A stretch of DNA of 62,499 bases, taken from a virus (Duplodnaviria > Caudoviricetes). The notes below the pieces were generated by a model. It was not told where the DNA came from. It saw only the letters and a list, made by a program, of their open reading frames with translations, and did not search any database. Numbering within the stretch: position 1 is the first letter of the stretch; each line of letters begins with the position of its first letter. This document shows, piece by piece, positions 1,984 to 62,063 of this stretch. The translations under genes and the position numbers were made by a program. The stretch covers positions 1-62,499 of the IMG/VR virus record IMGVR_UViG_3300042504_001487. One strand, 5' to 3'.

Positions 1984-2294
1984 AAATCGACCCCGTCTGG
2001 ACCATCATCGTCATTACCACCATCGTCATCACCTTCCTCGCCTTCTGGTTTGTCTTCGTAGTTCGACAGATCTACGCGGTGTTCATCACCACCAAAGAGA
2101 AACGTGTTGCTCTGGAAGCCCAGCGACACATGCTTCGCTTTTGCCAAAATCCGACTCAGCGCAACTGGCAAACCGCGTGGACCTTCATCACGAAAAACCA
2201 GATTTCGCTCAACGATCTGGAATGGCATCTGGTCGAGAGATTCACCAAAATGGGGTACATCACCAACTTTCCACCCGATGCCGAACCCTCGTAA
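1980..2294 (+). CDS. Small membrane protein
   Basis: GTG start overlapping the upstream TGA; one N-terminal hydrophobic helix. Confidence 0.6.
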   Translation: MKIDPVWTIIVITTIVITFLAFWFVFVVRQIYAVFITTKEKRVALEAQRHMLRFCQNPTQRNWQTAWTFITKNQISLNDLEWHLVERFTKMGYITNFPPDAEPS

Positions 2295-2511
2295 AAACCT
2301 CAAAGGCAAAACTTTCGGCAGTCTCACCGTGCTGCGTCTGGCGAAGTCGGACAACAGCGGCAACACCCAGTGGCTGTGCCTCTGCGACTGCGGCAACGAA
2401 ACCACCGTGCGCTACCAGCACCTTTCGACCGGACGCACCAAGTCGTGTGGCTGTTCTAAGAAAAGCGGTCGCAGCCTTGATCCGTTTAGTGAAGAGGCGT
2501 TTTGGGGCTAG
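2278..2511 (+). CDS. Zn-binding protein resembling the N-terminal module of AP2/HNH phage proteins; ends EEAFWG
   Basis: GKTFGSLTV...WLCLCDCGN...TKSCGC motif. Confidence 0.75.
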   Translation: MPNPRKNLKGKTFGSLTVLRLAKSDNSGNTQWLCLCDCGNETTVRYQHLSTGRTKSCGCSKKSGRSLDPFSEEAFWG

Positions 2512-2863
2512 CCAAAGGCTTCCCCACCTCGCCGATGAACCCTTTCACGGGTTTGACCAACAGGAGACGCACCACCTTGCGGTAGTTCCGCTGCACGGTC
2601 AGCCTGCTTACCCCCAGCAGTTTTGCGATCTCCTTGGCTCCGAGGTTCCAATCCACCTGCGCCCACGAAGACAGGGGGATGAACCGGCGCTTGGCCTTGA
2701 TGCGCTTGCGCTGATGGGCTGCTTTCATCTCGGCGTGCCTCTCGCACAGCTTACTCTTGGGACAGCGAATGGAGGGCGTGCCGCCGCAAATAGGGCACAG
2801 ATTGGCCCCTTTGCGCATAAGCTGCCATTGCTGTTGTTTTGAAAGTTCACTCAATTTTAGCAT
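2486..2863 (-). CDS. Zn-finger plus HTH DNA-binding protein
   Basis: CPICGG...CERH and VDWNLGAKEIAKLLGVSRLTV; ATG 2863 follows a TTGACC...TATATA promoter-like sequence. Confidence 0.65.
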   Translation of the reverse strand: MLKLSELSKQQQWQLMRKGANLCPICGGTPSIRCPKSKLCERHAEMKAAHQRKRIKAKRRFIPLSSWAQVDWNLGAKEIAKLLGVSRLTVQRNYRKVVRLLLVKPVKGFIGEVGKPLASPKTPLH

Positions 2864-2944
2864 TGACCATATATATACTTGGTGGCAGCATGCGGTCAAT
2901 CGACGGTTGCGGGGTCGTCCGACCTTTGTTACTTGCGCAGCATT

Positions 2945-5227
2945 ATGTCCCAACTAACTCTTCTCGCCAAATTACCCACCGAGGCATCCCCTCCGGTGCC
3001 AGACGTAACGGCTGCCGCCCGAGTCAAACGTGCGTCCGACGTAGTCTCGCAGTATCAGACCTTGTTCAACGAGGACTACATTGCCAGCCGCGACCGTGCC
3101 GTAGTGCAGTCCATGGCCGACCGCAACGCGCCCTACAGCGACAGCCGATTACGTCAACTGGGCATCTCCGGCATCACCAACGTCAACTGGGGCGACCTTG
3201 GCATTGCACAGATGGAGGCCGAGAAGCCATACAACTCCGTGCTGATGTCGATGTCGCACTTTGGCATCGTGCCTTTCAAGAACGGCGTCATGACAGACGT
3301 GGAGGCCGAGGAGAAAGAGATCGTCGTCGCGGAAGAACTGCACCGCATGATCACCGAATGGCGGGATTTCCGCTTCCGCTGGAAGATGAACGCTCACTTT
3401 TTCACCATGTGGGGCGTCAGCTTCACCTACCGCGAAGACAACCTCGACTGGCGGTGGAAGGTGTCTTCCCTGCAAGACGTTAAGGTGCCGCGTGGGACAC
3501 AGGCGACGGTCAACGAAGTGGACCGCATCTTCATGAAGGCCGACATGACCCCGTCGGATCTGTTCGCCAAGATCAGAGACCCGGAAGTTGGAAGACTAGC
3601 CGGGTGGAACGAAGCGCAGATACGCATGTCGTGCGCCAACGCCCAACCCAAGCCGCTCAACACGCAGTCCCCCGAGGACATGCAGGCGATGTGGAAAGAC
3701 AACTCGGTGTATAGCGGCAACACCAACATCGTCGTGCAGGTGGTACACGGGTTCGTCAAAGAAGTGGACGGATCGGTCAGCCACTACATCGTAGATTACA
3801 CATTGAACACGGCAGAAGCCCAGTTCATCTACGAGAAGAAGGGCAAGTTTGCCGACATGTCGGAGTTTATCAACGCCTACCTGTTTGGCGTCGGCACCAA
3901 CGGAGATTTCCACAGCATTCGAGGCAACGCCTTCAATCTGTTCCCGTCGGCAGCCGCCCTCAACAAACTGCGCTGCAAGCTCGTGGACAAAGCCAACGAC
4001 GAGGCCAACACTTTCCTCTCAACCGACAACGAAGACGCGACCATCGACAACATGATCGTTCCTCGTGGACCCTACTTCCAGCTTACCACTGGGGTCAACT
4101 TCGTGGAAAGGGCAACGCCTCCGGTCGCCGGGAACCTTGTCCCGGCCATCGAAGAGATGGAGCAGACTTTCCGTGTTCAATCCTCCGGCATGGCCCCGCG
4201 ATCCACCGCGCAAACCGAGCGAGGACAGAAGACCAAGTACGAACTCCAACGCGCCGACGAGATCGACTCGTCCCTCACCAGCGACTCCATGGACATGTTC
4301 TTGGACTCTTGGAAGTGGGACTACCGCGAGGTGGTGAAGCGCGTCATCAACCCCGATCTTCAGGAAGATCACCCAGGCGGCAAGCAAGCGTTCGACTTCC
4401 GCCGCCGTTGCGAGCAACGCGGCGTGCCGTATGTCCTGCTCCAGCAACTTGACTTCGACAACATCAACCTCAACCGAGGCATCGGTCGTGGTTCGTCTGC
4501 CGAACGTCGGTCAGTGCTGAGCAACCTCAACGACACCATCTTCGGACGGCTTGATCCCGAAGGGCAGCAAATCCTTACCCGTGACACCATCGCGGCACAG
4601 ACCGACTACCGGTATGCCTTGATGCTGGTGCCACGGCAAGCGGGTCAGCGTCCTCCAGTGGACAAGCAGATCGCCAACATCGAGAACATGGACCTCAAAA
4701 CAGGGTCCGACGCAGTGCTGGTGCCGAATCAAAACCACATCGTCCATGTCGGTGCACATCTGGAGTTGCTGCAAGCGTACGATGCCGCCATCGCCGAGGT
4801 GCAGGTGGAACTGAAAGACGCCATTCCGGTGATGCTGAAAGCCTCCGAGCACTGCAACGAGCACATGCAGTACATCGACCCAGAAAGCCAGCCGTATCGC
4901 ACATACAAGCAGGCGCTTCAGCAGCTTAACGAGGTCATCACCAACGGGGCAAAGCACCTGGAGGCCGACCAGCGCAAAGCGCAGAAGGCGATGGAAAAAG
5001 GACTGCCACCACCCGAAGAGGACGGCACGCCACCTGGGGTGCATGGTCAGGCGGTGGACGCCAAAGCGCGGCTTGAAATGATACGCCAAGAAGGTTTGAC
5101 CAAACTGGAGATTAAGAAGCAGGAGGCCGACCAGAAACTCCTCTTCAACGACGCCTTCGCCGCGCAAAAGCTCAAGCAGATGAGCGCCGAGCAGCAGATT
5201 AAAGCCCGTCAGAGACCCACAGCATGA
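2945..5227 (+). CDS. Probable portal protein
   Basis: ~760 aa with helical C-terminus; first gene of head module, before scaffold and capsid; assigned by position and size. Confidence 0.7.
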   Translation: MSQLTLLAKLPTEASPPVPDVTAAARVKRASDVVSQYQTLFNEDYIASRDRAVVQSMADRNAPYSDSRLRQLGISGITNVNWGDLGIAQMEAEKPYNSVLMSMSHFGIVPFKNGVMTDVEAEEKEIVVAEELHRMITEWRDFRFRWKMNAHFFTMWGVSFTYREDNLDWRWKVSSLQDVKVPRGTQATVNEVDRIFMKADMTPSDLFAKIRDPEVGRLAGWNEAQIRMSCANAQPKPLNTQSPEDMQAMWKDNSVYSGNTNIVVQVVHGFVKEVDGSVSHYIVDYTLNTAEAQFIYEKKGKFADMSEFINAYLFGVGTNGDFHSIRGNAFNLFPSAAALNKLRCKLVDKANDEANTFLSTDNEDATIDNMIVPRGPYFQLTTGVNFVERATPPVAGNLVPAIEEMEQTFRVQSSGMAPRSTAQTERGQKTKYELQRADEIDSSLTSDSMDMFLDSWKWDYREVVKRVINPDLQEDHPGGKQAFDFRRRCEQRGVPYVLLQQLDFDNINLNRGIGRGSSAERRSVLSNLNDTIFGRLDPEGQQILTRDTIAAQTDYRYALMLVPRQAGQRPPVDKQIANIENMDLKTGSDAVLVPNQNHIVHVGAHLELLQAYDAAIAEVQVELKDAIPVMLKASEHCNEHMQYIDPESQPYRTYKQALQQLNEVITNGAKHLEADQRKAQKAMEKGLPPPEEDGTPPGVHGQAVDAKARLEMIRQEGLTKLEIKKQEADQKLLFNDAFAAQKLKQMSAEQQIKARQRPTA

Positions 5228-5586
5228 ACACCCCGATATTAAGCAGTCCAGAAATTCGTAAGTTCAGGAGTTCCGTCCCGTTGCAGCAATCCCTGAAAGC
5301 GGCTTTAGAGCAGCCAGAAATCAAAGCTGCCCTTGAAGCCATTGCCAGCACGGTGCTGCCAAGAAGCATCCCCGACACCATCCCCGGCAATCACCCGGAC
5401 ACGGCTATCGCTCACCAGTATTACCGCATGTTTGGGGTTCAGCAGGTGCTCTCCACGTTGGAAGCCATGACAGTCCCATCCGGGAAGCACAAACTCGACA
5501 ACGGGGGCAAACTTTCAGCTTTTGAAGACAGCCTGCCCGACGAATACGCCGACCCGCTGCCACCTTCTGAGCGCCTCGAAAAATAG
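5224..5586 (+). CDS. Hypothetical head-module protein
   Basis: ATGA-coupled to portal. Confidence 0.7.
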   Translation: MNTPILSSPEIRKFRSSVPLQQSLKAALEQPEIKAALEAIASTVLPRSIPDTIPGNHPDTAIAHQYYRMFGVQQVLSTLEAMTVPSGKHKLDNGGKLSAFEDSLPDEYADPLPPSERLEK

Positions 5587-5599
5587 CGCCTGAAAATCT

Positions 5600-6784
5600 A
5601 TGCTAAACCCCACTACCCCGCCTCCCTCCGTCGAGATCGACGGAGCTTCGTTCAATGCCGCCCTTGCGGCCACCGTCCCTCAAGCTACCGGAATGCAGCC
5701 CGTCCAGGCTCCCGCCGTAGTTGAAGCGCCCCCAGTCACTCCTTCAGTCGAGGTCAAACCTGTGGAGGTCAAACCTGCCGACGAGAAACCCAAGAAAGGG
5801 TTGGACGCTCTCCCCGAGGAAAAAATCGAGGAAGAAAAGAAAGAGGAGAAAATCGAAGCCAAATCTCCCGAAGAACCGGAGGTGGACACTTCCAAGTGGG
5901 CCAAACCCCAGCAGCAAGCGTTTGCCGCCATGCGTGCGGAGAAGAAACGCGCTGAAGAAAAAGCTCGTGACGCCCAGATCCGTTACGACAAGCTCCAAAA
6001 AGAATACGAGCAGGCCAAAGCCAACCCCAAAGACAGCGAGGAAACGCTGAAAAAGCTCGAACGTCTGGAATCGTGGGAGAAAGCCCAGGATCTTCGCAAC
6101 ACCCCCGAGTGGATCGAAACCATTCAAGCGCCGATCCAGAAGTCTCTGGATATGCTTCACCGCATCGCTGACCACGCCAACATTGACGCCCAGGCTTTGA
6201 TTGAGGCCACCGACGAGGAGGTGCCGTTTGAGCGCATCCTTGCCATTCGCAAGGTGTTCGACGAGTCAGACACACCCGTCCCAGACACCCTCATCACTGC
6301 CGCCGTGCAGGAGGCCGAGAAGCTCCACCCTCTTTACCAAAAAGGGTCGGATATGGAGAGGAACGCCGCTGAAACTCTCACCAGTCTCCGCTATCAGACC
6401 GATCAACAAAAAGCCGAGATTTCCAAAGCCGAAGAAGCGGCTTATGTGAAGCACCACGACCACATCTACGGGCAGATGGCAAAGAAACTGCCGTCGCTGT
6501 TCAGCAAACCTGAGATCGCTGACGAAGTAAAAGCAGCACGCCCAGCCACCGACCCAGCCGAAAGGGCATTCCAGGCTCAAGCAGCCGCCCTGCTTCCTTC
6601 AATAGCCCAAGAACTGTTCGCTCTGCGGGAAGAAGTGAAGAAGGAGAAGGCTTCCAAGCTCGCTTTGCTAGGCGCTCGCCCCGGCGTCAACCCTTCCCCG
6701 GCACCCACCTCTAAACCGGCCAGCGACGACGACGTGGAGCTTGACGAAGAGGGTCTGACATCAGCCCTCCGCCAGCGCCGGTAA
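5600..6784 (+). CDS. Probable capsid scaffolding protein
   Basis: E/K/P-rich coiled-coil protein immediately before capsid. Confidence 0.65.
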   Translation: MLNPTTPPPSVEIDGASFNAALAATVPQATGMQPVQAPAVVEAPPVTPSVEVKPVEVKPADEKPKKGLDALPEEKIEEEKKEEKIEAKSPEEPEVDTSKWAKPQQQAFAAMRAEKKRAEEKARDAQIRYDKLQKEYEQAKANPKDSEETLKKLERLESWEKAQDLRNTPEWIETIQAPIQKSLDMLHRIADHANIDAQALIEATDEEVPFERILAIRKVFDESDTPVPDTLITAAVQEAEKLHPLYQKGSDMERNAAETLTSLRYQTDQQKAEISKAEEAAYVKHHDHIYGQMAKKLPSLFSKPEIADEVKAARPATDPAERAFQAQAAALLPSIAQELFALREEVKKEKASKLALLGARPGVNPSPAPTSKPASDDDVELDEEGLTSALRQRR

Positions 6785-6801
6785 CATCCCCCAAATTGCA
6801 G

Positions 6802-6840
6802 TGCCGGGTTGGCTTAATCGCCGACCCGGCATTTTTTTTT
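6802..6840 (+). terminator. Rho-independent terminator
   Basis: TGCCGGGTTGGC-loop-GCCGACCCGGCA followed by T9. Confidence 0.9.
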
Positions 6841-6841
6841 G

Positions 6842-6870
6842 TTGACGTTGTGGGATATTGTATATATTCT
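6842..6870 (+). promoter_or_regulatory. Sigma70-type promoter for capsid gene
   Basis: TTGACG-N17-TATTCT right after the terminator. Confidence 0.75.
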
Positions 6871-7047
6871 GCACCATTGAAGCGTAACATCACCCGTCCT
6901 TCACGGGTACTTTGGTCACTAACCGGAGCGTAAATCTAGCCAGGACACCTCCCCTGACATCAAGCAATTCGCCTTGCTTACGTCATCAGGGGCATTCCCA
7001 CGGTCGCGTTGAGCGGGCTTAACAAACCACTCATTTATTTCACGACT

Positions 7048-8226
7048 ATGCCTGCTACCGCACTCGACCAGTACTTCCTCTCCGACGCCTCTCGTATCGA
7101 AGGCAAGGTGGACAAAATTATGCGCGTCAAAGGACGCCTCTCCGCACTCCTCAAGAAGGACATCCTGCCTGACGGCATGGGCTTCAACTTCTCGACGGTG
7201 ATCGTCAAACGCTCCACCGGCGTCGGTGGCGGCTGGGTGCCGGTCTCCACACCCGATGGCTCCGGCAACAACTGCGTGCCGACGCCAACCGTCATCAGCC
7301 CAGCGATGACTCAGATCACCTACTCGGCGTTCCAGACGACCCAGTATTCCAACGACATCTGCTTCCGCGATCTGGCGGCTGCCTACGATGCAAAAGACCA
7401 GCTTTCCGCCATTCGCGACAACTTTGTCGCCAACGTGGTCGATACCTGGGACTTGCAAGACAAGGCGCTGTTCCTCCAGAACGCCGGTCACAAGATCGTC
7501 TTCAACTCGTCCCTGACCGAGACCACCAACGGCAGCACGATGCCAGCCGTTCCCGCCACCAGCACGATCAACCAGGGTCTCCTCGACGTGCTCTACAACC
7601 GTGGTACACAGGACGGCATGGGCGAAGAATCCGCCTACGCCAAACGTCAGGGCGCTCCGATCCTGCCGCTCATCCTGTCCCAAGAAGCTCACCGGACGAT
7701 CATCAAAGGAGATGACTCGATCCGCAACGACTTCCGCTGGGCCGACTCCGGCAAGAGCGATGGCGCTGTCTTGCTCCAGTCCTGGGGCATCGACCGCGAA
7801 TACGGTGGTTTCCACCACATCGTCGATCAGCGTATGCCACGCTGGGACTTCGTCAACGGTGCCTGGGTCAATCGTCCGTTCTACTCCAACACGGCCACCA
7901 CCATCGGTGACGAGGCCAACGTGAGCGCGGCCTACCAAGCTGCCGAGTTTGAAGACCTCTACATCTTCAGCCCCGACATGATGACCCGTCAGGTGCCAAA
8001 GCCCTCGACCTCCTTCGGTTCGGGTTCCAGCGCCAAGGCGATCAGCTTCAACGGAGAAGTCGTGTGGCTCAACATCCCCGACAAAGTCGAGAATCCGTTC
8101 AGCGACATCGGCTTCTTCGCCGCCCGCCTCTACGCCGCCTACAAGCCCCGCAAGGTGCAATACGGCTACGTCGTCCGCTTCAAACGCTGCCCTAACGTGG
8201 CTAGCACCTCCTGCCCCGCCTACTAA
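7048..8226 (+). CDS. Probable major capsid protein
   Basis: 392 aa, strongly biased codons, own promoter and terminator, follows scaffold. Confidence 0.8.
   Translation: MPATALDQYFLSDASRIEGKVDKIMRVKGRLSALLKKDILPDGMGFNFSTVIVKRSTGVGGGWVPVSTPDGSGNNCVPTPTVISPAMTQITYSAFQTTQYSNDICFRDLAAAYDAKDQLSAIRDNFVANVVDTWDLQDKALFLQNAGHKIVFNSSLTETTNGSTMPAVPATSTINQGLLDVLYNRGTQDGMGEESAYAKRQGAPILPLILSQEAHRTIIKGDDSIRNDFRWADSGKSDGAVLLQSWGIDREYGGFHHIVDQRMPRWDFVNGAWVNRPFYSNTATTIGDEANVSAAYQAAEFEDLYIFSPDMMTRQVPKPSTSFGSGSSAKAISFNGEVVWLNIPDKVENPFSDIGFFAARLYAAYKPRKVQYGYVVRFKRCPNVASTSCPAY

Positions 8227-13914: not shown

Positions 13915-13915
<1 letters not shown>
13493..13915 (+). CDS. Hypothetical structural protein
   Basis: ORF in virion module. 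Confidence 0.6.
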
Positions 13916-15845
<1,930 letters not shown>

Positions 15846-35747: not shown

Positions 35748-35812
35748 GGGGGTAGCTACTTGGTTAATATGAGACTCCGGCTAGGAGCTTGAAAGAGAGA
35801 GAGAGCGGAGGT

Positions 35813-47553: not shown

Positions 47554-47648
47554 GTTAGTATGTTTTCGGTTTGGTGTTTCTCGGGTCGCCGCGTTGTGCG
47601 GTAGAGGCTGAATATCCACAGAGGATTCTGCGGGTCAACCCCAAAGTG

Positions 47649-48848: not shown

Positions 48849-48853
48849 GGGGA

Positions 48854-49099
48854 CTATTTGTTGAGTTCCGCGATAAGGCAAACCGCGTGGATGGTGGCTT
48901 TTTCAGCGATGTCTTCGTAAAAATCATATCCTTCTCCCGTCATGTCCGCATGGTCATGTTTTATCACCAACTGGTGGTTGGCGAGGAGTCCTTGCATTGC
49001 CATCGCAGCGAAGTATTCGCGTTTGGTGAGTCCCGCCAGAGACGGGTAATCTTTGTCTGTTTCTGTGGAGAAAGTGGGGGCTTCGGTATGAGTTTCCAT
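48854..49099 (-). CDS. Small conserved phage protein
   Basis: GLTKREYFAAMAMQGLLA motif. Confidence 0.75.
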   Translation of the reverse strand: METHTEAPTFSTETDKDYPSLAGLTKREYFAAMAMQGLLANHQLVIKHDHADMTGEGYDFYEDIAEKATIHAVCLIAELNK

Positions 49100-49161: not shown

Positions 49162-49821
49162 TTAGCCGAGGTCCACTTCTTTAGCTTGTGCGTCAGGGTC
49201 GGTGTCAACGGCACCGATCTTGATGGCGGCGGCGTGGATGTCGGCGTAATGCTCGGCGGCGATCTCAGACATGGTGTTGTAGTTGAACTTCTTCTGGAAG
49301 TAAGCCTTGAGCTTGAGCTTGCCTTCGTTCGGAAGAGTCTTCACGGTTTCGCGCAAGCGGGATTCGCTGATGGATGGAGCCTCAGGTTCCGGTGCGGGGG
49401 CTGGGGCAGTTTTGGCAGCCTTGGCTTTGACGGGTTTCTCGACGACGGGAGCCGGAGCTTCGGTGACGGCGGCTTTCGAGGGGACGCAGGCAGCGTGGTT
49501 GTTGATGGCTTCGATCAGCGGCCTGATGCAGATGTCGAAGAAGAGGGTGAAGATTTCTTTCATATTGTTGTTTTGTGTTTGGGTGTGTTGTTTTTCATCC
49601 TTCACCGAATTGCCGGTGATTGATTGAAAGTCGAAAGGGAGGGAACGGATAAAGCGGTTGTTGGCGTGATTGTAAAGGCGGAACAACTCGGGCTGTTGCT
49701 GGCAGATGTAGAGGAGTTTGCGTTGAAAAGCGAGGCCACGGGTGTAGCGGTCGCCGTCTGACAACTCGAATCCCCAGTCGTGGGTTTTGAGGAGAGCGAT
49801 GAAGTCGGCGGTCGGTATCAT
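49162..49821 (-). CDS. Hypothetical protein, possibly with internal start at 49563
   Basis: A/C-rich leader before ATG 49563; A/P/K-rich linker. Confidence 0.55.
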   Translation of the reverse strand: MIPTADFIALLKTHDWGFELSDGDRYTRGLAFQRKLLYICQQQPELFRLYNHANNRFIRSLPFDFQSITGNSVKDEKQHTQTQNNNMKEIFTLFFDICIRPLIEAINNHAACVPSKAAVTEAPAPVVEKPVKAKAAKTAPAPAPEPEAPSISESRLRETVKTLPNEGKLKLKAYFQKKFNYNTMSEIAAEHYADIHAAAIKIGAVDTDPDAQAKEVDLG

Positions 49822-52418
49822 GCGTCAGAAACATTGGATGAATTTTCAGACTTATGCAACAACATTTCAACGGGATTTTGACCTTCAAGGCGGTCGGTGC
49901 GTGCCCAAACGTATTGCCGCTCGCCTGCGAGCATGTGCCGTCCGGCTGGCGAGAAGCCCGCGTTGCGGAGAACGTGGGTGAGATACTTCGGAGTGACGTT
50001 CTGAATGCCCTCGGTGACGAGAGCAGCACGCAGCGCACCAAGGGCTACAGCGTTGGGTTGGATCAGGTTGCACTCGTCGTTGTCCCAGATCCTGTTCAGC
50101 ACGGCAGTCACGTCGTCGCTGGTGTCGGCGATCATTTCCTGCAAATAGGTCGTGATCGGTGCCGGACCTGACGGGCGGAACGTCGAACTGATTGTGCGGT
50201 TCTCGAACAGGTGACGGTAGCCGCCTGCGTGAGTGGTAAGCGAGTCGGCGAACCGGCTGAAATACTCCGGGTCTTTGTCCACGATGGCGCGAATCTGCTC
50301 CTTGTGCTGTAGCTTCGATTTCACTACCCACCAGCGGCGACTGTCTTCACCCACCACGATGGCGTCGTGATGGTTGGTGAAGGCCATGTAGTTCGTGCGG
50401 TTCTGGATGTTGCGCGTGTTCTTGTTGCGTTCGTTGACGGGCAAGTAGTCGTTGGTGATCGGCTCTTTCAGGGTGTTCATCAACTCGTGACGGTTCTGCC
50501 CGGCCACGCGGAGTTCTTCAATGCAAACGACTTGACTGCCGAAGGCCCAGTCGTTCCAGCCTTTCTTGATGGTGTCCGAGTTGATCAATCGCGTGTTGTC
50601 GAGTCCCAGAATGGCGCGGATGACGCCGAACAGGAGAGTCTTGCCGCAACCTTCCACCCCCTGCACAAGCAAGGCGTGGCGCACCTTTGAGCCGGGGAAT
50701 TGCGCGTGATAGGCGATCCAGTCGAGCAGGTGGGTGCGATAGGCTGGCTCGGTGATGATGTTGCAGAGTTGTTCGCAAAGCACGTCCTCGGCGTAATTCG
50801 CCAACGATTTGTCGGCTTCGCGGAAGCTGCGGCGGTACAGGTTCACGAACAGTTTGCCTTCTTCTCGCGTGATGATGTCTTCCGGGGCCGACGGGTTGTA
50901 GGTTACGTCGTCCACCGTCTGACACTTGAGGTGGTTGAGCAGGTAGAGCGATGGAAGCACCTTGGGCGTGTTGAGCGTTTGCTCATTGACGTCACGTCCG
51001 ATTGCTTGCAACTCGGCAGCCGTGGGTAGCAGCTTGCGAGCGAAGACGCTGTCGAAGGCCACCTTCTTGTATTCCTGCCGTGTGCGATGCCGCAAAAAGG
51101 TGTCGGTGGCGGCGATATAGACGAACCCCAGAGACCATGGTGGGTGGATCACCTCGGCGGACTCGCTGCGTTTGGCGATGAGCGATTCGCGGAGGCTCTT
51201 CAACTCACGCTTCACGTCCATGAGTGGCAATGGTTGCTGGTAGTCCTGCCGAGACTTCGTCACCAGCGTTTGCAGCAAAGCGCCCTCTTCGATGTGCGAG
51301 AGCAGCGGGGCGGCGGCGATACGGCGCACCCCTTCGTTCATGAGTTGGACTGCGGACTTGCACTCGAACATGATCCAGTTCGACACGGTTTTGAAACTGG
51401 ACTCTTTGACCTTATCGCTGTTCCAACCGCCCTCGACCGCACGCTTGAGCAGTGAACGAATGGTGACGGGCTTGCGGCCTTTGGCCTGTTCTTGGAAGGA
51501 CTTCCACACTGTCCCGGTGTCCTTCTCATCTTCGTACTTGGTGCCGGTGGCGCTCCAGGTGTCGAACAGGGTAAACGCTTCGTCGTCTTGCAGTGCGCCA
51601 AACTGATGCTTCAACGCTGCCGCGATCTCCAGCCAGAGAGGTCGTGAGCAGTCGGCGTCAATGAATGTCAGCGCCTCCTCGATTTGCGCCAAGTCCACGC
51701 CAGCGACGGGGAACTGGAAGAAGGTCAGGAAATCGTCGATGCTGCCGGACGATGGGCCACGGGTCGGTTTGCTGCCCGATACGATTCCCGGCAGCGAGTC
51801 CACGTCGGTAGAGATGTCGTCAGGCTTGCAGCTTCTGCCGCCGAAGTGCATCACCAACACGGGATGCTCCAACTCGGGGTCTTGATCCGCGAACACGGTC
51901 GGTCGGAACATCGGCTGGCATACAATCGCCGACTCGCGCGTGACCTTCGGCAGCCCCAGGAGTTGACCCACCGTCAGCGCGGCGTCGGGGTAACGCTCGA
52001 CCGGAATGTTGTCCGCTTCCACGATGACGCGGATGCGCGGGAACAAAGGCGTTGAAGAGATCGTCTGGTAGGCGGCAAAGTTGAACTTTCCCAACGCTTC
52101 GACCAGCAGGCCCGGATTCTCCACAAAACGCCTTGCGTCGTCGGCGTCGTCGATGTCGAGGATGATGAGGTTGCAAGGACGGGCGTTCTCGATCTTCCGG
52201 CCTTCCCAAGGGGAACGGTCGAACGTGCAAGGCACCACATACCCGACGAGCTTGGCGTTGGCTCGCTCCTTCTTGCTCATCGCATGGTACTCAGCATAGG
52301 TGACGCTGAGAGGCACCGGCAGATTGATGAACTGCTGAATGAAGTCCCGGAAAGTGTTGGCTGGCGATTTGACCAGCGTGTGACTGGTGACGCTCTTACC
52401 TGTGAAGTACTGGGGCAT
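49818..52418 (-). CDS. Primase-helicase (PriCT-2 plus SF3/D5-like ATPase)
   Basis: LDID, WLEIAAALK...FDTWS, GVEGCGKT, IEEL and FTNH motifs. Confidence 0.88.
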   Translation of the reverse strand: MPQYFTGKSVTSHTLVKSPANTFRDFIQQFINLPVPLSVTYAEYHAMSKKERANAKLVGYVVPCTFDRSPWEGRKIENARPCNLIILDIDDADDARRFVENPGLLVEALGKFNFAAYQTISSTPLFPRIRVIVEADNIPVERYPDAALTVGQLLGLPKVTRESAIVCQPMFRPTVFADQDPELEHPVLVMHFGGRSCKPDDISTDVDSLPGIVSGSKPTRGPSSGSIDDFLTFFQFPVAGVDLAQIEEALTFIDADCSRPLWLEIAAALKHQFGALQDDEAFTLFDTWSATGTKYEDEKDTGTVWKSFQEQAKGRKPVTIRSLLKRAVEGGWNSDKVKESSFKTVSNWIMFECKSAVQLMNEGVRRIAAAPLLSHIEEGALLQTLVTKSRQDYQQPLPLMDVKRELKSLRESLIAKRSESAEVIHPPWSLGFVYIAATDTFLRHRTRQEYKKVAFDSVFARKLLPTAAELQAIGRDVNEQTLNTPKVLPSLYLLNHLKCQTVDDVTYNPSAPEDIITREEGKLFVNLYRRSFREADKSLANYAEDVLCEQLCNIITEPAYRTHLLDWIAYHAQFPGSKVRHALLVQGVEGCGKTLLFGVIRAILGLDNTRLINSDTIKKGWNDWAFGSQVVCIEELRVAGQNRHELMNTLKEPITNDYLPVNERNKNTRNIQNRTNYMAFTNHHDAIVVGEDSRRWWVVKSKLQHKEQIRAIVDKDPEYFSRFADSLTTHAGGYRHLFENRTISSTFRPSGPAPITTYLQEMIADTSDDVTAVLNRIWDNDECNLIQPNAVALGALRAALVTEGIQNVTPKYLTHVLRNAGFSPAGRHMLAGERQYVWARTDRLEGQNPVEMLLHKSENSSNVSDA

Positions 52419-53066: not shown

Positions 53067-54281
53067 TCAACCCCAAAAGTCGTCAGAGGGTTTTTTGCTC
53101 TCCGGTGCCTTCACACGCTTCGGAAAATAGGCGTACATCGTGTGCCGGGCGGCGTTGACGCGAGTGGCGAGCACCACGTCCACGAAGGCGACCGAGTGGG
53201 TTGCCGTCACCTCTTCCACGAACTTCATCGCGTGTTCCAACGGGATAAACAGCTTCGGCACGCTGTCCTCCAGCACGTCCTCGGCGTAGTCGGTCAACGT
53301 GCCAAGCTGTGACGCTTTGCGAGCGGTTGCGGCCTCGTCGAGGAACAGGGAGAAGCCGTTGCTCTCGTGCAGCATGCGCAGGGTAGCGCGGGGGGCGGCG
53401 GCTCGCATGGCGGCGAGCTTGTCGGTGAATATGGATTTGAAAAAGGTCATGGCTTGGCGGCATGAGTTTGATTCCTTCGTTGATGTTTTCTCTCCCCCGC
53501 TCTGTGCCAGAGCAGGGACGTTCGCTGAATGAATCCGCATCGCAGCGTCTTCGTGGTGTCGCGGTGAGATTTCCGCACCGATGAAGGCACGGCCTGTTCG
53601 TTTTGCTGCCACTCCTACTGTCCCGCTTCCGGCGAATGGGTCGCAGACAGTTTCCCCTGGCGCGGAGTAGAGCCGGACGGCCTTTTCCGCCAGCGAGGAC
53701 GGGAATGGGCATGGGTGATTCACTCGCTCCGGTTGGATGCACCACAGTCCGATTGTCTCTTTTGCCCACCGCTCCACAGTCCAGTCAGGCTTTGCCTTTG
53801 GTTGTCCGGGTTTCAGGAATACCAGCACCGGCTCATACGGGTTTCGGATGCTTGGCGTGTGCGGGTGGTTCATCGCGTAGCCGCCAGCGTGCGCGTTCTC
53901 CGCTGTCGTCCCCTTGGCCCACATGATTTCATCCCTGAACTCCCATCCAGCCGCCGTGATTGCTTCGCGGTATTTGTCGGGGCGGTATTTCTTTGGACGC
54001 TTCCCCCACCACAGCGGGACGTTCCATAGCGCATACGCTCCAGCGCGGCATTCGTCCCACGTCAGCGCGGCCACGTCACGAATCATGCTCCAGTATTCAT
54101 CCTCCGGCACATCGTCCAGATACCCGTCATAGGGCTTCTTTGCGTTGTAGGGAGGCGAGGTTAGCACCATGTCCCAAGGGCCAGTTCCACGCAGCACTTC
54201 ACGACAATCGCCAAGAATCAGCGAACAATCGGATGCAGAGAACCGCGCCATCGCGTCTGTTTCGATTTCGAGAGTTTTCAT
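53067..54281 (-). CDS. Beta-class N4/N6 DNA methyltransferase, in frame with a downstream ORF (ATG 53450) ending SDDFWG
   Basis: TSPPYN, HPCPFP and DPFAGSGT motifs. Confidence 0.88.
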   Translation of the reverse strand: MKTLEIETDAMARFSASDCSLILGDCREVLRGTGPWDMVLTSPPYNAKKPYDGYLDDVPEDEYWSMIRDVAALTWDECRAGAYALWNVPLWWGKRPKKYRPDKYREAITAAGWEFRDEIMWAKGTTAENAHAGGYAMNHPHTPSIRNPYEPVLVFLKPGQPKAKPDWTVERWAKETIGLWCIQPERVNHPCPFPSSLAEKAVRLYSAPGETVCDPFAGSGTVGVAAKRTGRAFIGAEISPRHHEDAAMRIHSANVPALAQSGGEKTSTKESNSCRQAMTFFKSIFTDKLAAMRAAAPRATLRMLHESNGFSLFLDEAATARKASQLGTLTDYAEDVLEDSVPKLFIPLEHAMKFVEEVTATHSVAFVDVVLATRVNAARHTMYAYFPKRVKAPESKKPSDDFWG

Positions 54282-54311: not shown

Positions 54312-54646
54312 GGAGAAACCATCTCGCGGAGCTTGTTGGCCGTTTGACGGGCATCCTCGATCACACGGCGCATGGCCTCAGCGTTATCACTGCTTCCGAC
54401 GATGTCCGCGATTCCGCCCGTCACGCATTTGGCGCAGAACCCAGAACCCCGCCCACATCCGTCGCACTCCGGACTGAGGCAAGGCCCGAACGTGCTCGGC
54501 CATTCCGGATAATTCCGCCAGAGGTCGTACAAGGCCATCTCCAGCATTCGCTCGCGGTTGCCACCGCACTTCCAAGAATAGGAGCGCATAACAGCCGACA
54601 TTTCGCTTTCCAGTTTTTCATTCATGGTCGTTTGATCTTGGGTCAA
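54278..54646 (-). CDS. Cys-rich hypothetical protein (putative second cassette)
   Basis: CLSPEC...CAKC; ends inside the attC-like site. Confidence 0.6.
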   Translation of the reverse strand: MTQDQTTMNEKLESEMSAVMRSYSWKCGGNRERMLEMALYDLWRNYPEWPSTFGPCLSPECDGCGRGSGFCAKCVTGGIADIVGSSDNAEAMRRVIEDARQTANKLREMVSPHNASDQRPRL

Positions 54647-54963
54647 CCCCAGAACTCTTTATCGTCTGAGGTGGCATCGGCTTGCTTGAGCTTCTCACGC
54701 AGCAGGCGCATACGGTAGGCGATCCATTGCGGATGAGCGTTCTGCTTTTGCGCGTTCCATGCGGCGGTTTTGCTGAGGTCGATTTTGCTGTCGAGGATTC
54801 GCGGCAAGCTGCCGCTGCCGGGTTTGCGCGGAGCCTTGGGCTTGCCTTTCTCGGCGCGGTGACGCAGCACGGTGTTTGGGTGGCAACCGACGATCTTGGC
54901 AATCTCTTCGTTGCGCATAGTTTTCCATGAAATGGTTTTCGGGTACTTGATGGGTTCTGACAT
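54643..54963 (-). CDS. HTH DNA-binding protein; ends DKEFWG
   Basis: NEEIAKIVGCHPNTVLRHR. Confidence 0.7.
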   Translation of the reverse strand: MSEPIKYPKTISWKTMRNEEIAKIVGCHPNTVLRHRAEKGKPKAPRKPGSGSLPRILDSKIDLSKTAAWNAQKQNAHPQWIAYRMRLLREKLKQADATSDDKEFWG

Positions 54964-55927: not shown

Positions 55928-56650
55928 TCACTCATCATCCCAAGGTTTGATTTCCCAATCCCCGATGCGCAAAGCGGTTTTTTTGAGGCTTTGCGCGTGG
56001 TCTTCAAACGCCTCTTGCACCTCTTTGGGTATCTTGAGCACCGGGTCTGGGTTCTGCCCTTGGTCTGGCTTAGATGTAAGCCAGCCGTTGCCCTCCTCTT
56101 CGTGCATGGGGTCGGACTGCCAGCCCCAGAAGTGGTACTCGTCTCCTGGTGGGGTTTTTGCGCCCCACTGTGAGACGTTCACAAGGTAGATGTCGAGGCA
56201 CTGCGCCTGCTTCCGCGCATAGCGTTTCCGCGTTTCACGGGGGTACACGTTGGGGCTGCGAAGGTAGTCAGGGATTTCTGTGCTGTAATGCAGCACAGAG
56301 TAACCGGCGTACTCGCGGTTCTCTTTCTGGTTTTCTTCCGCTTCTGACCATGCGCGGGAGATTGCCTCACGCACTTGCTCAAGGTCAACGGGAAATTCCC
56401 CAAAGACCTGAGAGCTTCCGCCACCTTCCGTGTCGAAGTCGTCACTCACCGACACTTCCACGAACACTTGCTTACCATCCTCCGAACTGATGCGGGCGGA
56501 GGCAATCTCCTTTTTGCTCCCGTACCACCCGGTGTCGAATGGTTTGCCCGATTTAAGCGCGGTGCGGAGGGCTTTTTCCTTGTCGGGGTACCAATCGGAT
56601 AGACCACAGTGCGCCCCGTCTCCTGAACTGAATGCTTTGAGTGTTTTCAT
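55928..56650 (-). CDS. Hypothetical early protein
   Basis: ORF after AAAACCG repeats; alternative start 56671. Confidence 0.65.
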   Translation of the reverse strand: MKTLKAFSSGDGAHCGLSDWYPDKEKALRTALKSGKPFDTGWYGSKKEIASARISSEDGKQVFVEVSVSDDFDTEGGGSSQVFGEFPVDLEQVREAISRAWSEAEENQKENREYAGYSVLHYSTEIPDYLRSPNVYPRETRKRYARKQAQCLDIYLVNVSQWGAKTPPGDEYHFWGWQSDPMHEEEGNGWLTSKPDQGQNPDPVLKIPKEVQEAFEDHAQSLKKTALRIGDWEIKPWDDE

Positions 56651-56672
56651 ATCTGTTTTCTGTCTTTTCATA

Positions 56673-56717
<45 letters not shown>

Positions 56718-56773
56718 TCCCGCCGTGTGGCGTTCAATGCTGCCGCCCGGATGAGGGGCGGCAGGGTTGAGCG

Positions 56774-58000: not shown

Positions 58001-58323
<323 letters not shown>

Positions 58324-58694: not shown

Positions 58695-59591
58695 TTATGC
58701 CGGGTATTTCTTGTACCATGGGTCATGTGGCCATGTGTCTATCTCCTCCATGATCTCGCGCTCCACGGGCCGGAACTCGGGGAACGAGTCGCGACTGCTG
58801 CGACTGCTGCGACTGCTGCGACTGCTGCGGCTCCATACGTGTTTTGCAGGCCGGAACTTGTAAACGCTGGTACACGTGGCGCAGATGTCCAGCATGAGAG
58901 CGCAGACCCGTTCCAAGTCGGCCAACACGATGTACTCACACGCCTGATGCGGGTTGTAGTACCCCGCTGACATGTTCGCGACTGACACGCCGACGCCATT
59001 GTCACGCAACGCTAGGACATCCGTCATCGCTCCGCCGCATGGCTTGTACTCATAGCGAGCGAGCAAAGGAGCGACGGCAGCAGCAAAGCGGGAACTTGCC
59101 AAGGGGCCGCAGATGTCGTTCACAAAGTCGGCGTTGCCTCGCCTATCAGCTTGCAAGACGAAGCGGCAGTCCTCGAAAAAGGACATGTCAGCAGCTTCAC
59201 TGCCGATACAGCCGACTTCCTCGTCCACGAAGAAGGCCGCTTTGCATGCTGGCAGATTAGCAAGGCAGTGGAGCGCGGCATAAATGCCGCATTTATCGTC
59301 ACCGCCTATTCCAGTCTGTTCCATCGTGACGGGGTTCAGCCCGGTCAATTTGCCGTCCAGCTCGATGAGGGCGATGCCGTCCCCGCTAATATCGTGGACG
59401 GTGTCCATGTGCGAAGCGATGCAAGGGAACGTCTGCGCATCGCCTTTGGTGACGTACAGATTGCCGGGAGCGTCACTGGTAACCAAGTAGCCGGACTGCT
59501 CACAATGTGATCGGATAAGCTCCGCCATGTCGCGCTGGTTGCCGGACTCGGATTCTGTCTGAAGGATGCTGTAGAGAAGATTTAAGTTCAT
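58695..59591 (-). CDS. M20/M28-clan Zn peptidase
   Basis: SHMDTVH, GGDDKCG, DEEVG, QADRRG and GYYNPH motifs. Confidence 0.85.
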   Translation of the reverse strand: MNLNLLYSILQTESESGNQRDMAELIRSHCEQSGYLVTSDAPGNLYVTKGDAQTFPCIASHMDTVHDISGDGIALIELDGKLTGLNPVTMEQTGIGGDDKCGIYAALHCLANLPACKAAFFVDEEVGCIGSEAADMSFFEDCRFVLQADRRGNADFVNDICGPLASSRFAAAVAPLLARYEYKPCGGAMTDVLALRDNGVGVSVANMSAGYYNPHQACEYIVLADLERVCALMLDICATCTSVYKFRPAKHVWSRSSRSSRSSRSSRDSFPEFRPVEREIMEEIDTWPHDPWYKKYPA

Positions 59592-59670
59592 GGGTTGTCG
59601 GGGTTGTCGGGGTTGTCGGGGTTGTCGGGTTGTCGGGTTGTCGGGTTGTCGGGTTGTCGGGTTGTCGGGG
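59592..59670. repeat. GGGTTGTC(G) tandem array filling the intergenic space
   Basis: About 9 copies of 8/9-mer units. Confidence 0.95.
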
Positions 59671-59679
59671 TCGTCGGAG

Positions 59680-60783
59680 TCATGCGCGATTGACATAGTC
59701 CTCGTGGACGTACACGGTTCCGATTCGTCCGCCCATGTCCACCTCGAACGCATCGGAGCGCAGGATGTACTCGTTTGAACGGTTACAATAGACGACATCG
59801 TCGTCGTCGTCCGCGTAGTACTCGCCACCGACGCAGACAACGCTGTCCTCGTCTCTCCATTCACCGTCAGCGCATTGCACTTGACCAGCATGCTGGTCAA
59901 CCTCGGTACGGTCTCCATCCGTGCAGTCGAGCAAGTGAGACGCGCCTTCCTCATCGTTTGAATTATAGACCCTGCCGTCATCAGTCATCGAGCGGAAGGT
60001 GTCCAGATAAGGCCAGAACTCCACGCTGCCGAGGCTGGACGTACGATCAACGTACAAGGCATCCTTTGAGAACCGGCGTTCTGTACCGTCGGCGAGAACG
60101 TATTCAGTGAAACAGCCGTTGTTTTGTTGCGCTTTGCGGGTCCATCCCTGTTCCGCCGCATAGCGGAAAAATGCTTCCGAGACTTCAGGGGAATCAGCGT
60201 AAACCCTGTCCATGAGGGGCGTGTCCAGATTCGCGACCTTATCCCATACGATAGCGCGTCCCCGGTATTGCTTGGAATCGCGCACGACAAGAACGCGGCA
60301 GGGATAGCAGGCGTAAAATTCGGCAACAGGCTCATCCCACATGCACGAAGTGATTTTACCGTCTTGGAAGTTAGCTTCCTTGTACGCTTGCTCAAAATCG
60401 ACAAACTCAAAACTGAGTTTTCCGCTTTCCTCGCTCGCTCTAAACTTAGTCGCGAAGTCGGCGAAAACGTGGTCCGGGATTCGTTTAGCGAGTCGGGGGG
60501 CGAGGATGGAGCGCAGCCATTTAGCAGGCTTAATTCCTTGCCGTCCTTCGCGCTTCCACGAGCCATCCGTGTTGATCTGCTGGACACGGCCTGCTGGCAT
60601 GTACGTGATAAGACCTTCAGCCTCGCGAAGCGTAAAATAATCGCCCATGGGTGAAGGGTTCAAGAGGCGCGACTTCTTACCGGCAGCGATGCGCGAAAGG
60701 GCGCGATTGACGAGACGGCAGCATGGCGAAGATTCGCCGAGTTCAGAGAGGAGATTCCTGAGGGATGTGGATAGCGTTATCAT
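59680..60783 (-). CDS. Conserved early phage protein with SCM motif and acidic Cys-containing tail
   Basis: SCMW...GRAIVW...MDRVY...WPYLDTF. Confidence 0.7.
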   Translation of the reverse strand: MITLSTSLRNLLSELGESSPCCRLVNRALSRIAAGKKSRLLNPSPMGDYFTLREAEGLITYMPAGRVQQINTDGSWKREGRQGIKPAKWLRSILAPRLAKRIPDHVFADFATKFRASEESGKLSFEFVDFEQAYKEANFQDGKITSCMWDEPVAEFYACYPCRVLVVRDSKQYRGRAIVWDKVANLDTPLMDRVYADSPEVSEAFFRYAAEQGWTRKAQQNNGCFTEYVLADGTERRFSKDALYVDRTSSLGSVEFWPYLDTFRSMTDDGRVYNSNDEEGASHLLDCTDGDRTEVDQHAGQVQCADGEWRDEDSVVCVGGEYYADDDDDVVYCNRSNEYILRSDAFEVDMGGRIGTVYVHEDYVNRA

Positions 60784-61081: not shown

Positions 61082-61090
61082 GTATGCCCT

Positions 61091-61411
61091 ATGACACCAG
61101 AACGCATATTACTGAACCTGCATTTAGTAACCCGTATCAGAATGGACAAAGTGAAGCTGCCCATGGGCAGCAGTCGCACTAAATGGATAAACGACGCCAT
61201 CCGTGAAAAGTTGGACAGGGACAACCCCGAGAGCGTGCATCCCATGGAGGGCGTTCAGCCCGTGCAGCGCATGGAGATCGTGAAGCCCGTGCAGCCCGTG
61301 GAGATCGTGAAGCCCGTGAAGCCCGTGGAGATCGTGAAGCACATGGAGGGCGATGACTTCTGGGGGGATGCCGAAAGGATGCGGGAACTGGTCAAACGTC
61401 ACGCGCGATAG
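61091..61411 (+). CDS. Ribbon-helix-helix-like protein with PV(E/K/Q) repeats and DDFWG
   Basis: LLNLHL...SRTKWINDAIREKL. Confidence 0.6.
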   Translation: MTPERILLNLHLVTRIRMDKVKLPMGSSRTKWINDAIREKLDRDNPESVHPMEGVQPVQRMEIVKPVQPVEIVKPVKPVEIVKHMEGDDFWGDAERMRELVKRHAR

Positions 61412-61505
61412 TGCTGGCGTTAGCACATGGAGGGGCGGCACGTTTCGCGCGTGCTGCCCCTTTTCGTGTCCTTGACGGGCTGCGGCGTGGTGGCATGGTG
61501 ACGGC

Positions 61506-62063
61506 ATGGCGAACACGTTAGCAACACCTTATTGGCCCGAAATACGCAGATTAGCAGAGCAGGGGGTTCCTCTCCCCAAGCTGGCGGAGGACTTTGGTCT
61601 CGCGGTTAATACGATATATAACAAGTCAGCCGCAGAGGACTGGCTCACGCCGTCACGGGTTAGAGCGAAGGTCGAAAAGTTAACCGTTCTAAAGCAAAAG
61701 CATATAGCGGGAAGCGGGGGAGACCCGCTTTTGGGGGGAAAAAGCATCGCCGAAAAATCAGAATCCCTGATTCTTGAGACGTGGGAGACCCGCGCCGCAG
61801 ACCTGCGTAATCTCAGCTACAACGTGGCGGTCGAAGCCATCCAAGCCGCAAAAGGGCAGATCGTAATCGAGAGCGCATCAGACCTTAAACATGCAGTTCA
61901 CGTTGCCCGGCAAGCTACTGGCATCCTAGATGCTGATGCGCCCCAGATTCAACTGAGTCTGTTTGCGAATCAGGACATATCCGGACCCGCAATTATGGAG
62001 GCTCAAACGTATGAGGCCGAGACATTGCAGCCAGTGTCAGAAGATGCTGATTTCTGGGGATAA
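61506..62063 (+). CDS. Probable terminase small subunit (N-terminal HTH); ends DADFWG
   Basis: WPEIRRLAEQGVPLPKLAEDFGLAVNTIYNKSAAEDW; adjacent to the terminal array. Confidence 0.6.
   Translation: MANTLATPYWPEIRRLAEQGVPLPKLAEDFGLAVNTIYNKSAAEDWLTPSRVRAKVEKLTVLKQKHIAGSGGDPLLGGKSIAEKSESLILETWETRAADLRNLSYNVAVEAIQAAKGQIVIESASDLKHAVHVARQATGILDADAPQIQLSLFANQDISGPAIMEAQTYEAETLQPVSEDADFWG

Follow-up and report, generated by a model that had tools for sequence, protein, structure and literature searches.

An Acidic-Aromatic C-Terminal Tail on DNA-Acting Proteins of an Uncultured Enc34-Type Phage: A Candidate Docking Motif

Introduction

Why should a nuclease, a helicase, a methyltransferase, and a TerS-like protein encoded by one phage end in the same few residues? 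The question is raised by IMG/VR virus record IMGVR_UViG_3300042504_001487 (Duplodnaviria; Caudoviricetes), a complete genome (62,499 bp; 56.5% G+C; direct terminal repeats), all of which we analyzed and refer to as the window. An earlier note, made from the sequence alone, had recorded five proteins that end exactly in an acidic stretch followed by Phe-Trp-Gly (FWG) and a stop codon, and had proposed that this tail recruits DNA-acting phage proteins to one hub or marks them for timed proteolysis or conjugation. We found that the conserved motif is acidic-F-W-x-COOH (FWx), in which the last residue is free, and that related phages carry other ends on the same protein families. On balance, we think that the tail is a docking motif, borne on a flexible C-terminal extension, for one common and probably phage-encoded receptor.

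The virion genes of the window form a plus-strand block (approximately 2.9-34.2 kb), and the genes for DNA metabolism form a minus-strand block. Pfam and PHROG matches assign the replication module to the Enc34/Casjensviridae type, with all six components present: the PriCT-2/D5-like primase-helicase, the DUF2800 exonuclease, the Enc34-type SSB, the family-A polymerase, VRR-NUC, and the SNF2 helicase. A module of this type is described in PMC5686142. The phage has no close cultured relative: the best match to its SNF2-family helicase among 50,697 phage records is 39% identical, and no relatives were found among 185,579 species genomes. Genes were called with a custom codon-usage script, which gave 74 proteins whose starts are uncertain and whose C termini are fixed by stop codons (Table 1).

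Results and Discussion

The Tail Is Enriched in the Window and Is Selected as a Peptide

A six-frame scan of the window yielded nine FWG tripeptides. Five are terminal in long open reading frames, two lie within acidic linkers, another is internal without an acidic context (HFWGW, in 55928-56737 on the minus strand), and the ninth falls in an out-of-frame open reading frame of 20 aa. The five exact acidic-FWG-stop ends of the earlier note are all among these, as are its two internal acidic copies (in an RHH-like and a glycosyltransferase-like protein), and the FWK ending that it had assigned to the VRR-NUC nuclease was also seen. On the basis of composition, 0.048 proteins ending in F-W-x would be expected, and 6 of the 74 called proteins have such an end (binomial P = 1.3e-11). 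The earlier note had proposed a comparison with a shuffled background; in 20,000 residue shuffles, there were never more than two proteins ending in F-W-x. The window proteome contains 16 FW dipeptides, 6 of which lie at positions -3/-2. When the enrichment test was applied to other genomes, FWx ends were found on 5 of 89 proteins in G001, 7 of 97 in G005, and 6 of 67 in G006. No gene of the virion block (2879-34159) has an FWx end, which agrees with the claim of the earlier note that head, fiber, and ejection proteins lack the tail.

We surveyed the codons of 39 distinct tail-bearing gene ends from the FWx lineage. Phe is encoded by TTT in 19 and by TTC in 20; the last residue is encoded by GGT in 12, GGA in 15, GGC in 1, GGG in 1, and a non-Gly codon in 10; and the stop is TGA in 30, TAA in 7, and TAG in 2. 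The 39 ends comprise 17 distinct 12-nt sequences. Their last residue is G in 29, D in 3, E in 3, and A, R, S, or K in 1 each, so that the acidic FW portion of the tail as first described stands and the fixed G does not. The earlier note had warned that the underlying DNA word, TTYTGGGG, might itself be common outside the reading frame. This word occurs 9 times in the window, compared with 5.3 +/- 2.3 times in shuffled sequence (at least 9 copies in 6 of 100 shuffles), and it is not enriched. Because the codons vary synonymously, all three stops are used, the 12-nt ends take 17 different forms, and the DNA word is unenriched, we conclude that selection targets the peptide and not the DNA, as had been proposed.

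These data bear directly on the alternative that the tail is a signal in DNA or RNA (for translational coupling, termination, or recombination) and that the peptide is a by-product. In many cases the start codon of the following gene overlaps the end, with ..GGATGA and ..GGTTGA common, and TTYTGGNNNTRR occurs 11 times where 3.7 occurrences are expected, all of which such a signal would explain. The unenriched word, the balanced Phe codons, and the variety of stops and 12-nt ends largely refute it, the internal in-frame copies always have an acidic context, and sister lineages conserve other peptides; we regard a nucleic acid signal as extremely improbable.

In the SNF2 helicase, the tail is an appendage of approximately 24 residues past the last conserved helix, at which tail-less homologues stop. 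Residues 458-481 have a pLDDT below 50 in an AlphaFold2 model, and the tail is predicted to be a flexible, disordered add-on. G001 and G006 encode the C-terminal domain that is fused to the methyltransferase in the window as a separate protein (119 and 149 aa, respectively), which also ends in FWG. In the HNH/Zn protein, the tail codons occupy 2500-2508 and the stop 2509-2511; its start is uncertain (GTG at 2104, or 2278).

The two internal acidic copies are conserved within the lineage. The motif in the glycosyltransferase-like protein is kept in G005 (DDGFWGDED) and G006 (DDAFWGDDE); neither G001 nor other lineages have it. The motif in the RHH-like protein is found at the same place in G001 (DDDFWDDE) and G006 (TDFWGEDE). 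In every case the next residue is D or E, which could stand in for the carboxylate.

Relatives Keep, Lose, and Exchange the Tail

The closest genome that we fetched, G001, has a PolA 60% identical to that of the window and FW-x ends on six proteins: the TerS-like protein (..DDGFWE), the 119-aa protein (..SGDFWG), the exonuclease (..ETEFWD), VRR-NUC (..KDFWA), SNF2 (..EDSFWD), and the HNH/Zn protein (..PPDFWS). Its copy of the HTH protein has no tail. G005 and G006 have 7 and 6 FW-x proteins, respectively. Absence of the tail from close relatives had been named as a possible refutation, and we found instead that the tail is kept: 82 of 91 TerS-like homologues in a large protein database end in FWx (FWG 42, FWE 35, FWD 5).

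For a comparison by locus, the lineage of each locus was set by its SNF2 tail. VRR-NUC ends in FWx in 8 of 8 FWx-lineage loci and in ..[DE]FC in 12 of 12 FC-lineage loci, and the methyltransferase C-terminal domain ends in FWx in 4 of 4 FWx loci. Within the FWx lineage, FWx was found on none of 8 SSBs (proteins that bind single-stranded DNA) and none of 7 primase-helicases.

The exonuclease illustrates how the tail is lost. Its intact form, ..DFWG* or ..FWD*, is present in L082 (..EETDFWG*), L080, and G001; in L079 the FWG is intact but comes immediately after an in-frame TGA (..EEE-TGA-FWG-TGA); L076 reads ..NEE-TGA-F-R-G-TGA; and the window has both a stop and the loss of one base. Because of this decay series, we identify the intergenic TTTGGGGTTGAC (47635-47646, minus strand) as a dead tail. 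The earlier note had listed this copy as a possible free DNA motif, and it is instead a remnant of the tail lost from the exonuclease.

A second SNF2 clade combines a core that is only 57-58% identical to that of the window with a near-identical tail, ..PAEEPDFNEEDFWG. Over its members P0043, P0045, P0048, P0055, P0057, and P0076, core identity is 57-59%, and P0045, P0048, and P0057 have the almost identical tail ..EEPDFNEEDFWG. Comparison of these sequences suggests that a tail module may have been exchanged, or recombined. The tail is gained and lost as a unit, and the exonuclease series and the apparent SNF2 exchange agree with the idea, put forward for checking in the earlier note, that homologues gain and lose it independently.

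Two further observations concern the SNF2 locus. In L074-L078, in which SNF2 is 99% identical, a 268-aa gene ending in ..SFNEEDFWG lies downstream of SNF2, and at the same spot the window has a tail-less MazG-like gene (40304-40852). Some SNF2 homologues (P0001, P0038, and P0083) are approximately 840 aa long and have intein domains (PF14890, PF13403 in two).

The ready loss of the tail from a gene that stays, as seen in the exonuclease, would suit a C-terminal degron, through which a protease of the host or the phage would break down early and middle proteins on schedule. The same is true of its absence from virion proteins and of the exposed, disordered C terminus, with hydrophobic residues at the very end, in the AlphaFold2 model. 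The degron is nevertheless a rather unlikely explanation, because sister lineages and cultured relatives tail the essential primase-helicase, exonuclease, and SSB, and because the form of the tail is continuous with that of T7-type tails, the known role of which is docking. The acidic and aromatic tail is also unlike the C-degrons known from bacteria (for example, ssrA, ..LAA), which are nonpolar and not strongly acidic. A peptidase gene of the window (58695-59981; phrog_4191) is absent from G001, and the tails are still there. We gathered no support for either the timed proteolysis or the conjugation suggested in the earlier note; we keep the degron as a rival.

Unrelated Proteins Switch Tails Together

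Among 114 SNF2 homologues, 34 end in FWx, 22 in W plus an aliphatic residue (..EEDWI), 10 in ..EEDFC, and 1 in another aromatic form, and 47 have no tail. When tail type was mapped onto an SNF2 tree built without the tail, 12 changes were required, compared with 56 with shuffled labels, and none of 200 shuffles gave a number as low.

Other families follow SNF2. In G009-G011 and G013, ..[DE]FC or ..DIC is found on the primase-helicase, exonuclease, SNF2, and VRR-NUC and on the methyltransferase-like, TerS-like, and HNH/Zn homologues; TerS-like homologues of the FC lineage end in ..NGLDFC and ..NTPDFC. G011 has the highest count for any genome, with 10 proteins that end in DF[CV]. In G007 and G008, the same families end in ..DW[IV], and HNH/Zn homologues in sister lineages end in ..ETEDWI and ..YPEDFC. 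By orthogroup, the tail of the lineage is present on SNF2 in 9 of 10 genomes, VRR-NUC in 8 of 10, exonuclease in 7 of 10, primase-helicase in 6 of 10 (all 6 of the FC and W[IV] lineages and none of the 4 of the FWx lineage), HTH in 6 of 7, HNH/Zn in 5 of 8, the methyltransferase C-terminal domain in 5 of 5, and the TerS-like protein in 4 of 4, with 4 of 5 more in a sister orthogroup. As background, 1573 of 1600 other proteins from loci with a tail-less SNF2 had no such end. The phages with FWG, DFC, and DW[IV] ends share one gene set, and SNF2 is approximately 55% identical between them.

Other shared ends were also seen: ..LE[DG]CGV on methyltransferase, HNH/Zn, and TerS-like proteins (L120, L122, and L123), and ..NLD[DE][YF] on SSB, VRR-NUC, and exonuclease (L112, L114, L117, and L140).

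Unrelated folds switch the same last residues together, as would be expected if one common receptor read the motif. The earlier proposal of recruitment to one hub is thus strengthened in its general direction, both by the concerted switching and by the carriers, which are DNA-acting and not virion proteins; it is not strengthened as to which protein the hub is.

Concerted switching also bears on the idea that the tail is an acidic, DNA-mimicking element that inhibits the protein carrying it, with no common partner. Every client binds or cuts DNA, and PMC5686142 describes acidic tails of T7 gp2.5 and the Enc34 SSB that fill their own or a neighbor's DNA-binding groove. Self-inhibition does not readily explain why at least eight unrelated folds in one genome share their last two or three residues and change them jointly between lineages, or why the internal copies sit in linkers of non-nuclease proteins, and we consider it very unlikely.

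A further alternative is that the tails dock onto a host protein (a replication, repair, or transcription hub) and that the lineage-specific ends mirror different hosts. A client set as broad as nuclease, helicase, methyltransferase, HTH, and TerS-like proteins would suit a general cellular hub, and the complete genome gave no match to the clamp families PF00712, PF02916, and PF00705, a search that covers encoded clamps. Host-directed tails do seem to occur in this genome, because the neighboring endonuclease-VII-like protein ends in ..GDPF, which resembles the tip of bacterial SSB; its homologues end in ..[DE]xDPF or ..EEPF in all lineages, a hint that this particular end is host directed. 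The FWG, DFC, and DW[IV] ends, however, differ widely between phages that share a gene set and have SNF2 proteins as similar as those described above, and to our knowledge conserved cellular hubs rarely shift in specificity to such an extent. These ends are unlike both the beta-clamp motif (QL[SD]LF) and the SSB tip. Host docking is therefore improbable as the general explanation.

We also considered a more elaborate form of docking, in which the tails are a private and fast-evolving address code. A phage-encoded receptor would read the last two or three residues and the free carboxylate, and so define the members of the phage's replication, repair, and packaging factory; lineages would re-code all clients jointly (FWx, DFC, DW[IV], LEDCGV, NLDDY, DDEV, and DDL); new genes would be enrolled by gaining a tail and old ones expelled by a single stop codon; and the factory would be insulated against co-infecting relatives and satellites. 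We regard this scheme as speculative and probably not correct.

Cultured Relatives Share Acidic Ends of a Second Class

Shared ends are also found in cultured phages with the same module. Seven proteins of Pseudomonas phage vB_Pae-SS2019XI (MN536026.1) end in [DE][DE]DL, and eight of Klebsiella phage KPN N98 (MG835858.1) end in D[DE]V; both phages belong to the Casjensviridae. The primase-helicase, exonuclease, and SSB are tailed in both phages, and PolA in neither. In open-access papers and preprints, we found none that describes these shared ..DDL and ..DDEV ends. They differ from those of the window in lacking an aromatic residue and in having SSB among the carriers.

In the window, the SSB end is acidic-aliphatic and separate from the FWx class. 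The 219-aa protein, which has no Pfam or PHROG match, belongs to a family of 87 members that end in ..GDM (28), ..DLG (30), or, for most of the remainder, another ..xM. SSB and the 219-aa protein make up a second, acidic-aliphatic tail class. In comparison with the Casjensviridae, the clade of the window has kept the aliphatic acidic end on these two proteins and has an aromatic end on the others. Given the shared acidic ends of the cultured Casjensviridae, which have this module too, we read the aromatic tails as derived from an ancestral acidic-aliphatic docking tail and split from the form that SSB retained.

Candidate Receptors and Points against Docking

In the docking model, the acidic-F-W-x-COOH tail would tether DNA-acting phage proteins to one common receptor within the machinery for replication, recombination, and DNA maturation. 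The clients would be the SNF2 helicase, VRR-NUC, the HNH-like nuclease, the methyltransferase fusion, the HTH protein, and the TerS-like protein, to which relatives would add the exonuclease and primase-helicase. The tail would work as those of T7 gp4 and gp2.5 do, but with many clients and a lineage-specific aromatic end. That there is receptor binding, that the receptor is phage encoded, and that it is PolA are three separate points, each of which we infer.

Of the core replisome proteins, only PolA is never tailed; all of the listed PolA proteins have ends of the ..[FY]Y.K type or are otherwise untailed. This, together with the T7 precedent, makes PolA the leading candidate, a tentative choice in which our confidence is limited. 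SSB would be an unlikely receptor, and another phage protein would be just as unlikely. PolA has conserved basic stretches (for example, residues 293-306 and 444-457), and nothing ties either of these to the tail. When the C-terminal 50 residues of SNF2 were co-folded with PolA (723 aa) and SSB (207 aa), with an alignment for each chain, both runs scored 0.00; they were made without controls and count neither for nor against binding.

Other hubs were also considered. Every genome with aromatic tails encodes the 219-aa, 67-aa, and DUF6321 proteins, none of which was detected in G002-G004. The 219-aa protein was examined as a clamp-like hub and rejected, because it proved to be a linker-rich protein of two domains with a tail of its own; the gene at its position in cultured relatives, approximately 130 aa long, is also tailed. 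A phage-encoded clamp was rejected as a hub because no clamp Pfam family was found in the genome.

Several observations weigh against a single docking receptor, or against PolA in that role. Core replisome proteins of the window's own lineage, which should be clients, have no FWx end (primase-helicase, 0 of 4 genomes; SSB, 0 of 4), and it is not obvious why TerS-like, HTH, and methyltransferase proteins would need to touch a polymerase. Two results are circular: the SNF2 count of 12 of 12, because the lineage of a locus was set by the SNF2 tail, and the invariance of F479/W480 in alignment A4, because A4 was picked for FWx ends. Two of the four cultured Enc34-module phages that we examined, VSe103 and RcBigEagle, have no clear shared tail. 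G013 has FC/IC-type tails and an FC-like exonuclease, VRR-NUC, SSB, MT199, portal, and capsid, yet its PolA is 59% identical to that of G007, of the W[IV] lineage, compared with 54-58% to those of FC genomes. This mosaicism is mild evidence against PolA as the partner that determines specificity, and it is no more than suggestive, because the overall distances of G013 are roughly equal. Finally, tail type changes 5 times on the PolA tree, 7 on that of SSB, 4 on that of the exonuclease, and 4 on that of SNF2 over the same 31 loci, which singles out no hub.

Comparison with Known Tails, and Implications

The T7 tails end in ..EADEDGDF (gp2.5, the SSB) and ..SNDTDF (gp4, the helicase-primase). 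In two sources (PMC12339929; bioRxiv 10.64898/2026.05.20.726333), the acidic tails of gp4 and gp2.5 are described as binding basic patches on the front of the gp5 DNA polymerase and in its thioredoxin-binding domain, the terminal Phe of gp2.5 as essential, and the role of the tails as recruitment and hand-off at the replisome. By analogy, we read these tails as the closest known mechanism and the FWx tail as a possible multi-client variant. Both occupy the extreme C terminus, combine a flexible acidic stretch with an aromatic residue near the end, and have more than one carrier per genome, and the window phage also has a PolA and a gp2.5/Enc34-type SSB. The differences are that the clade of the window has 6-10 clients per genome, compared with two in T7, and that these include nucleases, a methyltransferase, and HTH and TerS-like proteins; that the aromatic pair occupies -3/-2, ahead of a free last residue, whereas T7 has a terminal Phe; that the primase-helicase is of the PriCT-2/D5 type and not DnaG-DnaB; and that in the window's lineage SSB and primase-helicase lack FWx and the receptor is only a candidate.

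The earlier note had compared the tail with the SSB tip. The bacterial SSB tip (..DDDIPF) recruits many genome-maintenance proteins, and it resembles the FWx tail in its acidic stretch, its hydrophobic or aromatic end, its free carboxylate, and its interaction with a hub in DNA metabolism. The topology is reversed, in that here many clients are tailed and one partner would hold the pocket. The SSB of the window ends in ..DIDDM, the FWx proteins are not SSBs, and only the ..GDPF protein is tip-like. The analogy was apt in its general direction, but T7 gp4 and gp2.5 are a nearer precedent.

Clamp-binding tails, such as those of the T4 gp45 partners gp43, gp33, and gp55, the PIP-box, and the beta-clamp motifs, likewise bring diverse DNA-acting proteins, polymerase-accessory, transcription, and modification enzymes among them, to one hub through one short C-terminal motif. 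They differ in that no clamp family was detected in the genome and FWx lacks the Q and L positions of Qxx[LIM]xx[FY][FY] and QL[SD]LF. Proteasome activators carry the HbYX motif, in which a hydrophobic and an aromatic residue are followed by any residue with a free carboxylate; the likeness is one of form only, as there is no proteasomal context here and the aromatic residue of HbYX is Tyr and not Trp. In open-access papers and preprints, we found no description of one C-terminal tail common to many proteins of a phage. What is new relative to T7 is the number of clients and the lineage-coded ends; the kind of interaction is already known.

Should the tail prove to be a docking code that many proteins share, the sequence of an uncultured phage would by itself reveal which of its proteins act together, those of unknown function among them, and the two-tail paradigm of T7 would extend to many clients, among them recombination, modification, regulatory, and packaging proteins. 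Concerted re-coding between lineages would provide a natural experiment for finding the receptor and would show how interaction networks stay coherent in mobile, mosaic genomes. The cultured Casjensviridae with ..DDL and ..DDEV ends make the docking idea testable at the bench, and tail peptides could act as specific inhibitors or affinity handles.

Other Features of the Genome

Table 1. Tail-Bearing Proteins, Tail Copies, and Replication Genes in the Window
Feature	Position	Strand	End or motif	Match or remark
HNH/Zn-ribbon endonuclease-like protein	2104-2511	+	..PFSEEAFWG	phrog_374 (HNH endonuclease), E 6.5e-25
Internal copy, acidic linker of 386-aa glycosyltransferase-like protein (34587-35747)	34890-34898	-	EGEDFWGDD	
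SNF2-family helicase	40843-42288	-	..EPEFNEEDFWG	PF00176; phrog_62, E 1.5e-124
Endonuclease-VII/HNH-like protein	42595-43092	-	..EQDGDPF	phrog_3322, E 4e-10
VRR-NUC nuclease	43844-44266	-	..REGGFWK	FW-x with little acidity; phrog_93, E 1.4e-28
Family-A DNA polymerase (PolA), 723 aa	44300-46471	-		start corrected to ATG at 46471
Enc34/gp2.5-type SSB, 207 aa	46930-47553	-	..ADLDIDDM	phrog_112; PF10991; own acidic end
Decayed exonuclease FWG-tail relic	47635-47651	-	..VDLNEA-TAA-CAC-TTT-GGG-GTT-GA	directly 3' of present stop
DUF2800 PD-(D/E)XK exonuclease	47649-48881	-		module component; no tail in window, tailed in relatives
219-aa two-domain protein	49162-49821	-	..KEVDLG	N-terminal domain, PAPAPEPE linker, C-terminal domain
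PriCT-2/D5-like primase-helicase	49818-52418	-		module component; no tail in window
N6/N4 DNA methyltransferase, C-terminal domain fusion	53067-54281	-	..KKPSDDFWG	PF01555, residues 37-246
Small DNA-binding (HTH-like) protein	54643-54963	-	..TSDDKEFWG	phrog_664, weak, E 2e-4
Internal copy, small RHH-like protein (61091-61411)	61358-61366	+	EGDDFWGD	
TerS-like/HTH_7 protein	61506-62063	+	..VSEDADFWG	HTH_7, E 0.003, below Pfam cut-off

The structural genes of the window's clade are very divergent. The portal-like, 394-aa, and capsid-like proteins (2879-8226, plus strand) have no PHROG match at E 0.01, and a single open reading frame of 4,142 aa in the virion block (21147-33575, plus strand) has homologues in G001 and G002 that are 39% and 52% identical, respectively, over the matched parts. 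The end of another virion-block protein (13915-14769, plus strand) is conserved, reading ..PSEVFS in the window and ..PPDVYT in G001 and G005; its penultimate residue is aromatic, yet this is not the FWx motif.

A 648-aa protein (38357-40303, minus strand) without a Pfam, PHROG, or PDB sequence match is probably the large terminase. It has a Walker A-like GHASSGKS, a Walker B-like LILIADE, and a conserved end, ..GW[AG][DE]xxF[GHRS]. A PDB search with the single sequence found nothing, and a search with a profile gave one weak large-terminase match (8dkr_B, E 0.4). The gene order in G003 is TerS-like, 648-aa homologue, portal-like.

A cluster at 34587-38321 (minus strand) might modify DNA or the virion; it encodes a 530-aa protein and a small methyltransferase-like protein (phrog_6636) in addition to the 386-aa glycosyltransferase-like protein. 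The language-model features of the 530-aa protein lie near DUF5672/GT9-like viral clusters (0.89-0.94), which serves as a lead only.

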